Shown here piece after piece: positions 60,398 through 60,840 of a stretch of DNA of 64,000 nt. The DNA comes from Escherichia coli. GTDB lineage: Bacteria > Pseudomonadota > Gammaproteobacteria > Enterobacterales > Enterobacteriaceae. The notes under the pieces are model-generated. The model made no database searches. It was given only the letters and a program-made list of their open reading frames with translations, and was not told where the DNA came from. The DNA lies in the NCBI RefSeq assembly GCF_003334765.1, contig NZ_QOWT01000004.1, one strand, 5' to 3'. Both the position numbers and the translations under genes were made by a program. Numbering within the stretch: the stretch's first letter is position 1; the number at the start of each line of letters is the position of its first letter.

Positions 60398-60840
60398 GTG
60401 AACACAATACACCTGCGCTGTCTCTTCAGGATGAATCCCCTGGTCTGGTGCCTGCGGGCTGATGTTGCAGCAGAGCTTAGGTCACTTAGACGCTACTATC
60501 ATTTATCCAATGGCATGGAATCGAAATCAGTCGATACCCGCAGTATATATCGTGAACTGGGTGCAACGCTGAGTTACAACATGCGCCTGGGGAACGGTAT
60601 GGAAATGAACCCTGGCTGAAGGCGGCTGTGCGCAAAGAATTTGTCGATGATAACCGGGTGAAGGTGAATAATGACGGTAATTTCGTCAATGATTTGTCGG
60701 GCAGACGTGGAATATACCAGGCAGCTATTAAAGCCTCATTCAGCAGTACGTTTAGCGGACATCTCGGGGTGGGGTATAGCCATGGTGCCGGTGTGGAATC
60801 CCCGTGGAACGCGGTGGCTGGTGTGAACTGGTCGTTCTGA
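60398..60840 (+). pseudogene. ycgI: Autotransporter beta-domain remnant YcgI (frameshifted, passenger absent)
   Basis: Two ORF fragments in different frames (60398-60619, 60628-60840); second ends with autotransporter C-terminal motif ...GVNWSF; no upstream passenger domain. Confidence 0.75.

Follow-up and report, generated by a model that had tools for sequence, protein, structure and literature searches.

The DNA analysed here is a 64-kb window of Escherichia coli sequence, and the segment that concerns us carries the K-12 gene order pdeG-ymgF-ycgH-ymgD-ymgG-ymgI-ymgJ-ycgI-minE-minD-minC. A query covering 59900–61250 (1,351 bp) was 100% identical to K-12 MG1655 and found matches in 5425 of the 5426 complete E. 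coli genomes. RefSeq/PGAP describes window positions 60497–60840 as an ‘autotransporter outer membrane beta-barrel domain-containing protein; frameshifted; incomplete; missing N-terminus’. This is the long-annotated K-12 pseudogene ycgI, and its pseudogene status was thus already known.

The ycgI remnant occupies 60497–60840 on the plus strand and consists of the 114 terminal codons of a beta-barrel domain from an AIDA-I-type (YpjA/EhaD-like) autotransporter; the sequence closes with GVNWSF and a stop codon. After correction for a frameshift, these 114 residues matched PF03797 over model positions 152–254 of 255 (E 5.3e-10) and the NCBIfam model TIGR01414 over positions 319–432 of 432 (E 5.5e-21), the latter with a score of 75 bits against a cut-off of 16. 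At the nucleotide level the remnant is ~97% identical to the 3′ end of the gene that strain UTME-7 carries, intact, at this locus. The preliminary description of this DNA had recognized the C-terminal end of an autotransporter beta-barrel here, and the profile search bears this out, with significant similarity to autotransporter beta-domains. Its estimate of the size has to be revised, however: it had counted about 150 codons beginning at 60398, but 114 codons are left and homology begins at 60497.

That the fragment is split by a frameshift had also been noted, and three-frame translation agrees. The frame 2 piece (...YYHLSNGMESKSVDTRSIYRELGATLSYNMRLGNGMEMNPG) is open to a TGA at 60617–60619, and the frame 1 piece (...EPWLKAAVRKEFVDDNRVKVNNDGNFVNDLSGRRGIYQAAIKASFSSTFSGHLGVGYSHGAGVESPWNAVAGVNWSF) runs from about 60607 to its stop codon at 60840. 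Global alignment with the intact allele places the K-12-lineage lesion at 60605–60607 on the plus strand, where one T has been lost at 60606 (GAAATTGAA to GAAATGAA); the premature TGA is due to this loss.

When we searched the whole window by tblastn with the intact 1138-aa homologue, only two significant matches were found, aa 1025–1063 at 60497–60613 (E 2.6e-17) and aa 1054–1138 at 60595–60837 (E 5e-41). No match anywhere in the 64 kb was found for aa 1–1024, which include the signal peptide and the passenger, in line with the earlier claim that both are absent. Compared with a type Va autotransporter, the remnant keeps a part of the C-terminal beta-barrel translocator domain (PF03797/TIGR01414) and the C-terminal beta-signal with its aromatic end (...AGVNWSF), a motif defined generally for outer-membrane proteins. 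It has no N-terminal Sec signal peptide, which was deleted in K-12, no passenger upstream of the barrel and no complete 12-strand barrel, the first ~60% of the domain lying within the 3,101 bp whose deletion is described below. Judging from the domain-model coordinates, the surviving part would correspond to roughly the last five of the twelve strands. The remnant has neither ribosome-binding site nor start codon, neither signal peptide nor passenger, and should be unable to be exported, to form a barrel or to make a translocator. Since export signal and native translation start are both gone and the K-12 copy is frameshifted as well, no translocator would be expected from it.

A comparison of synteny revealed what the gene once looked like. 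In UTME-7, an uninterrupted 3,417-bp gene (L003 8929–12345, encoding 1138 aa) is flanked by ymgI, ymgJ and a 39-codon open reading frame on one side, the side of the leader, and by minE on the other. CB209 and Ch1 carry intact genes of 1116 and 1134 aa (L011 2128–5478; L012 2941–6345) at exactly the same site, so that the intact alleles range from 1116 to 1138 aa, and all three are preceded by the same gene order as the leader retained in the window. PGAP names them ‘ypjA: adhesin-like autotransporter YpjA/EhaD’. The UTME-7 protein begins with a signal-peptide-like N-terminus (MNRISRYYFHRSALSLLISAMIYAPPGMTAF). Six AIDA repeats are significant in Pfam, which also finds a Pertactin domain at 641–759 and a complete Autotransporter domain at 877–1115, covering model positions 1–253 of 255; a long linker of Asn-Pro repeats is present as well. 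A search of the accessible literature for a published name for this intact min-locus gene found nothing relevant.

Alignment of the window with UTME-7 by blastn gives the extent of what has been lost. Positions 59900–60497 correspond to L003 8302–8899 at 99.2% identity, and positions 60497–61250 correspond to L003 12001–12755 at 97.6% identity, so that K-12 is without exactly L003 8900–12000, or 3,101 bp relative to UTME-7. The suggestion that a second autotransporter had lost its 5′ part to a deletion thus holds, with UTME-7 flanks matching K-12 on both sides. From blastn and from direct comparison with L003 8862–8942 and 11964–12044, the junction (60496–60498) reads GACGCTAC, then T, then ATCATTT, where the T at 60497 is common to both sides and amounts to 1 bp of microhomology. 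We considered a longer microhomology, as an imperfect TAT(T)CATTT is found on both sides, but in the K-12 sequence the two sides meet at the one T that they have in common. The left breakpoint falls 30 bp before the ATG at L003 8929, and the deleted segment includes an AGAGGA-like ribosome-binding site, the ATG, the signal peptide, the entire passenger and approximately the first 60% of the barrel. Compared with the intact allele found at this locus, ycgI is therefore truncated and has lost its translation start signals, both of which are marks of a pseudogene.

The position of the left breakpoint also explains the stretch at 60398–60496 (plus strand), which the preliminary description had included in the gene. 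With this breakpoint 30 bp ahead of the start codon, the stretch is former 5′ leader and not autotransporter coding sequence: it aligns with L003 8800–8899, that is, with bases 129 to 30 upstream of the ancestral ATG, and it also aligns upstream of K-12 ypjA. It showed no tblastn match to the intact protein and no NCBIfam match, although its 33 residues are short for a strong test with profiles. The first 33 codons of the interval are therefore ex-leader DNA that came into frame by chance after the deletion.

The whole retained upstream region of the ancestral gene can be placed at 60143–60496 on the plus strand and contains ymgJ (60197–60382) and the 39-codon open reading frame (60343–60462). 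Positions 60143–60497 are 89% identical to the region upstream of ypjA in K-12 (L010 1071–1426), and identity reaches ~95% over 60320–60497. The 39-codon frame has a paralogue upstream of ypjA from which it differs at 5 codons, 5 of them by non-synonymous and 0 by synonymous changes. Because all differing codons are non-synonymous, the conservation of the last ~180 bp of the leader points to a cis-regulatory or 5′-UTR element rather than to a conserved peptide. ymgJ looks weak as a conserved coding gene: its paralogue ahead of ypjA is interrupted by an in-frame stop, with 17 non-synonymous and 2 synonymous differing codons, and the ymgJ of ST131 is annotated as frameshifted.

Downstream of the remnant, a hairpin with a T-rich tail (AAACTGCGC-TTCG-GCGCAGTTT; 60853–60880, plus strand) begins 13 bases past the stop codon. 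The hairpin itself (60853–60874) has a fold energy of −17.9 kcal/mol and a z-score of −6.1, and none of 200 shuffled sequences folded as well. This is likely to be the intrinsic terminator of the ancestral gene. Two terminator-like hairpins face it on the minus strand, at 60919–60936 and 61160–61187; the 370-bp spacer between ycgI and minE thus holds convergent terminator-like hairpins, one following the remnant and two on the strand of minE.

The deleted allele is by far the commonest form of the locus. Of the 5426 complete genomes, 4517 (~83%) carry the K-12 type, counted as those covering at least 80% of a K-12 query that spans the junction, and in ~900 genomes the same query matched only from its position 598, which is window position 60497. 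With a query for the right junction, of which ypjA can cover only 67%, an undeleted right side contiguous with minE was found in 417 of the 5426 genomes (~8%), and the three examined in detail carry the intact gene. We rejected a count of 2382 genomes (at least 80% coverage) as an estimate of intact alleles. It came from a query with the entire UTME-7 locus (4.4 kb), and the ypjA paralogue, matching positions 242–4056 of this query at ~92%, inflates it.

In all 7 deleted alleles that we aligned, from several lineages, the junction is identical. The frameshifts differ among them: K-12 has lost the T at 60606, NRG 857C has lost a G in CCAATGGC, and ST131 has lost the same G as NRG 857C together with a second single base. 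O111 FWSEC0005, HS-02, PK8261 and LP-26 have no frameshift. Three different 1-bp deletions have thus accumulated in different lineages, and such further unconstrained disabling mutations are a mark of a pseudogene. The deletion preceded the frameshifts, and the frameshifts are independent and unconstrained, as expected of a pseudogene. Given the seven identical junctions and the coverage counts, the deletion would most simply go back to a single event.

Other rearrangements have affected this locus as well. The O157:H7-type strain TW14588 (L002 10338–12345) shows a separate truncation, in which a 753-bp 3′ fragment abuts IS1203; in place of the ycgH-ymgJ side stands other DNA, with ompT, IS66-family elements and part of a tail fiber assembly gene. 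In strain 2452 (NZ_CP031833.1), IS1A interrupts the interval between ymgI and ycgI, and the locus is otherwise identical to that of K-12. In LP-26-E1-261, ymgG-ycgI-minED lies on a 216-kb record named ‘plasmid unnamed1’ (L009, NZ_JBVDMR010000004.1), which is probably a piece of the chromosome or a wrongly labelled replicon. To see whether other Escherichia species have the deletion as well, we searched the species-representative genomes of GTDB for the exact sequence of the junction (23 bases), a search that would miss diverged junctions and is uninformative on the age of the deletion. It returned one match, in the ‘uncultured Clostridiales’ MAG UMGS1323, where 618 bp at the end of the 9.5 kb examined from contig URTG01000020.1 (16.8 kb, L013) match ycgI and its leader at 97.7%. 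Since these 618 bp are the only match, and the adjoining 5.5 kb of the contig showed no other match to E. coli, the contig looks chimeric.

Nearby, ycgH (56534–59181, plus strand) is a second autotransporter pseudogene in K-12, annotated by RefSeq as ‘frameshifted; internal stop’. Compared with the intact Ch1 allele, it carries a CAA to TAA nonsense mutation at 58052–58054 and has lost one T after 59106 (GGGGTAATG to GGGGAATG). ycgH is intact in CB209 and Ch1, both of which also carry the intact min-locus gene. As ycgH and ycgI are both dead in K-12 and intact in some other strains, the proposal that the ycgH-ycgI interval is a zone of autotransporter gene decay in K-12 is supported. The two genes show no detectable resemblance in sequence: tblastn found no similarity between the ycgI ancestor and ycgH at E values up to 10.

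A close relative of the lost gene is found elsewhere in the K-12 chromosome. Over the last 355 bp of K-12 ypjA, the remnant shows 95.5% nucleotide identity, and the intact alleles are about 87–95% identical to ypjA at the nucleotide level. The intact protein shares 79.6% aa identity with YpjA over aa 119–1138, and the N-terminal parts align at only 39–47% identity. The high identity over both barrel and passenger is that of a member of the YpjA/EhaD subfamily. The chromosomal positions do not correspond, ypjA lying beside ypjF/yfjZ in the CP4-57 region and ycgI beside minE, and because the loci differ the ycgI ancestor is a paralogue of ypjA and not its orthologue. The comparison thus identifies the lost gene as a close paralogue of ypjA/EhaD. 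The PGAP label ‘ypjA’ on the min-locus alleles is consequently a paralogue mislabel, and it could confuse gene-content surveys or cause adhesin genes to be counted twice.

Taken together, these observations make 60497–60840 almost certainly an inert remnant of an autotransporter gene left by a 3,101-bp deletion, presumably neither functional nor expressed, although the retained leader or promoter may still give some transcription. The ancestral locus would have encoded a full-length type Va autotransporter adhesin of ~1,130 aa, transcribed toward minE, with a Sec signal peptide, a beta-helical passenger of AIDA repeats, a pertactin-like autochaperone region, a Pro-Asn linker and a 12-strand beta-barrel. 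One illegitimate-recombination event at 1 bp of microhomology would then have removed 3,101 bp, from 30 bp before the start codon to ~60% into the barrel domain. This allele is now the dominant one in E. coli and has gathered separate 1-bp frameshifts by neutral decay.

Could YcgI nevertheless be a real small protein of ~147 aa, starting from the GTG at 60398 and using its terminal beta-strands in a new role, as a partial barrel or a BAM-interacting peptide? In strains without a frameshift the 147-codon frame from this GTG stays open, and it was taken as a protein in older annotations; it is uninterrupted in O111, HS-02, PK8261 and LP-26, and the beta-signal-like C-terminus (...NWSF) is kept. 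Against this, K-12, NRG 857C and ST131 carry frameshifts at different sites, so the frame is not preserved. The N-terminal 33 residues are encoded by ex-leader DNA and contain no recognisable signal peptide, and the native ribosome-binding site and ATG were inside the deleted segment. Autotransporter barrels have 12 strands, and five strands are too few to close one. A review that modelled YcgI as an outer-membrane protein with I-TASSER obtained a deformed or broken barrel (PMC7383365), which fits a fragment and tells against a working small protein. We therefore give the small protein very little credence. It also seems highly improbable that a partial 3′ copy of ypjA was inserted beside minE where no full gene had ever been, with the ‘intact’ alleles arising later by gene conversion from ypjA. 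The identity of the remnant (95.5%) and of the leader (89%) to the ypjA locus would have provided homology arms on both sides of the junction for such conversion, but at ~87–95% nucleotide and 79.6% aa identity, and with a shorter passenger, the intact alleles are not recent copies of ypjA. Moreover, they are found between the same flanks on several divergent backgrounds, and the clean abutment of leader and 3′ end at 1 bp of microhomology is what an internal deletion is expected to leave.

It is tempting to ask whether the remnant is instead kept as a non-coding element, either as a spacer or terminator block or as a source of convergent transcription acting on the 3′ end of minCDE. The high conservation of the retained leader and the convergent terminator-like hairpins at 60853–60874 (plus strand) and 60919–60936 (minus strand) are compatible with such a role, as is a filamentation screen in which enrichment ran from minCDE into the ycgI homologue, a result that linkage could explain according to its authors (PMC6206680). 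However, in O157:H7 strains an IS1203-truncated form is found and all of the upstream region has been exchanged for other DNA, the complete gene is present in ~8% of genomes, and the min system evidently tolerates all these allele states; retention as an element of this kind is hardly to be believed. Two more far-reaching possibilities are likewise quite improbable. The retained leader at 60143–60496, ~95% conserved with the ypjA leader in its last 180 bp, may still drive transcription of the remnant toward the convergent minE terminator and thereby regulate minCDE; or selection on a trait of a surface adhesin or phage receptor, and not drift, may be what keeps intact and deleted alleles side by side in divergent lineages. 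The deletion remnant remains our reading of the locus, and ycgI is a case of ordinary gene decay.

The significance of this result is small, as the analysis confirms a pseudogene that has long been annotated in K-12. Its practical corrections are that the gene-derived part is 60497–60840 and not 60398–60840, and that YcgI should not be counted or modelled among the outer-membrane proteins of K-12. Compared with the RefSeq/PGAP entry for ycgI, which describes the same feature and whose coordinates agree with the homology boundary that we found, the present analysis adds the precise extent of the 3,101-bp deletion, identifies the intact allele and establishes that 60398–60496 does not derive from the gene.

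Among known autotransporter loci, ycgH resembles ycgI in being inactive in K-12 and intact in some strains; unlike ycgI, it retains its full length, and point lesions rather than a large deletion inactivated it. Another closely related system is YpjA/EhaD, and YpjA has been placed in Group 4 of the autotransporters, a biofilm-associated, AIDA-I/SAAT-like group (PMC9289746). The intact min-locus allele has the same architecture as YpjA/EhaD and bears the PGAP name ypjA, but its passenger is shorter, the protein measuring 1138 aa compared to 1526 aa.
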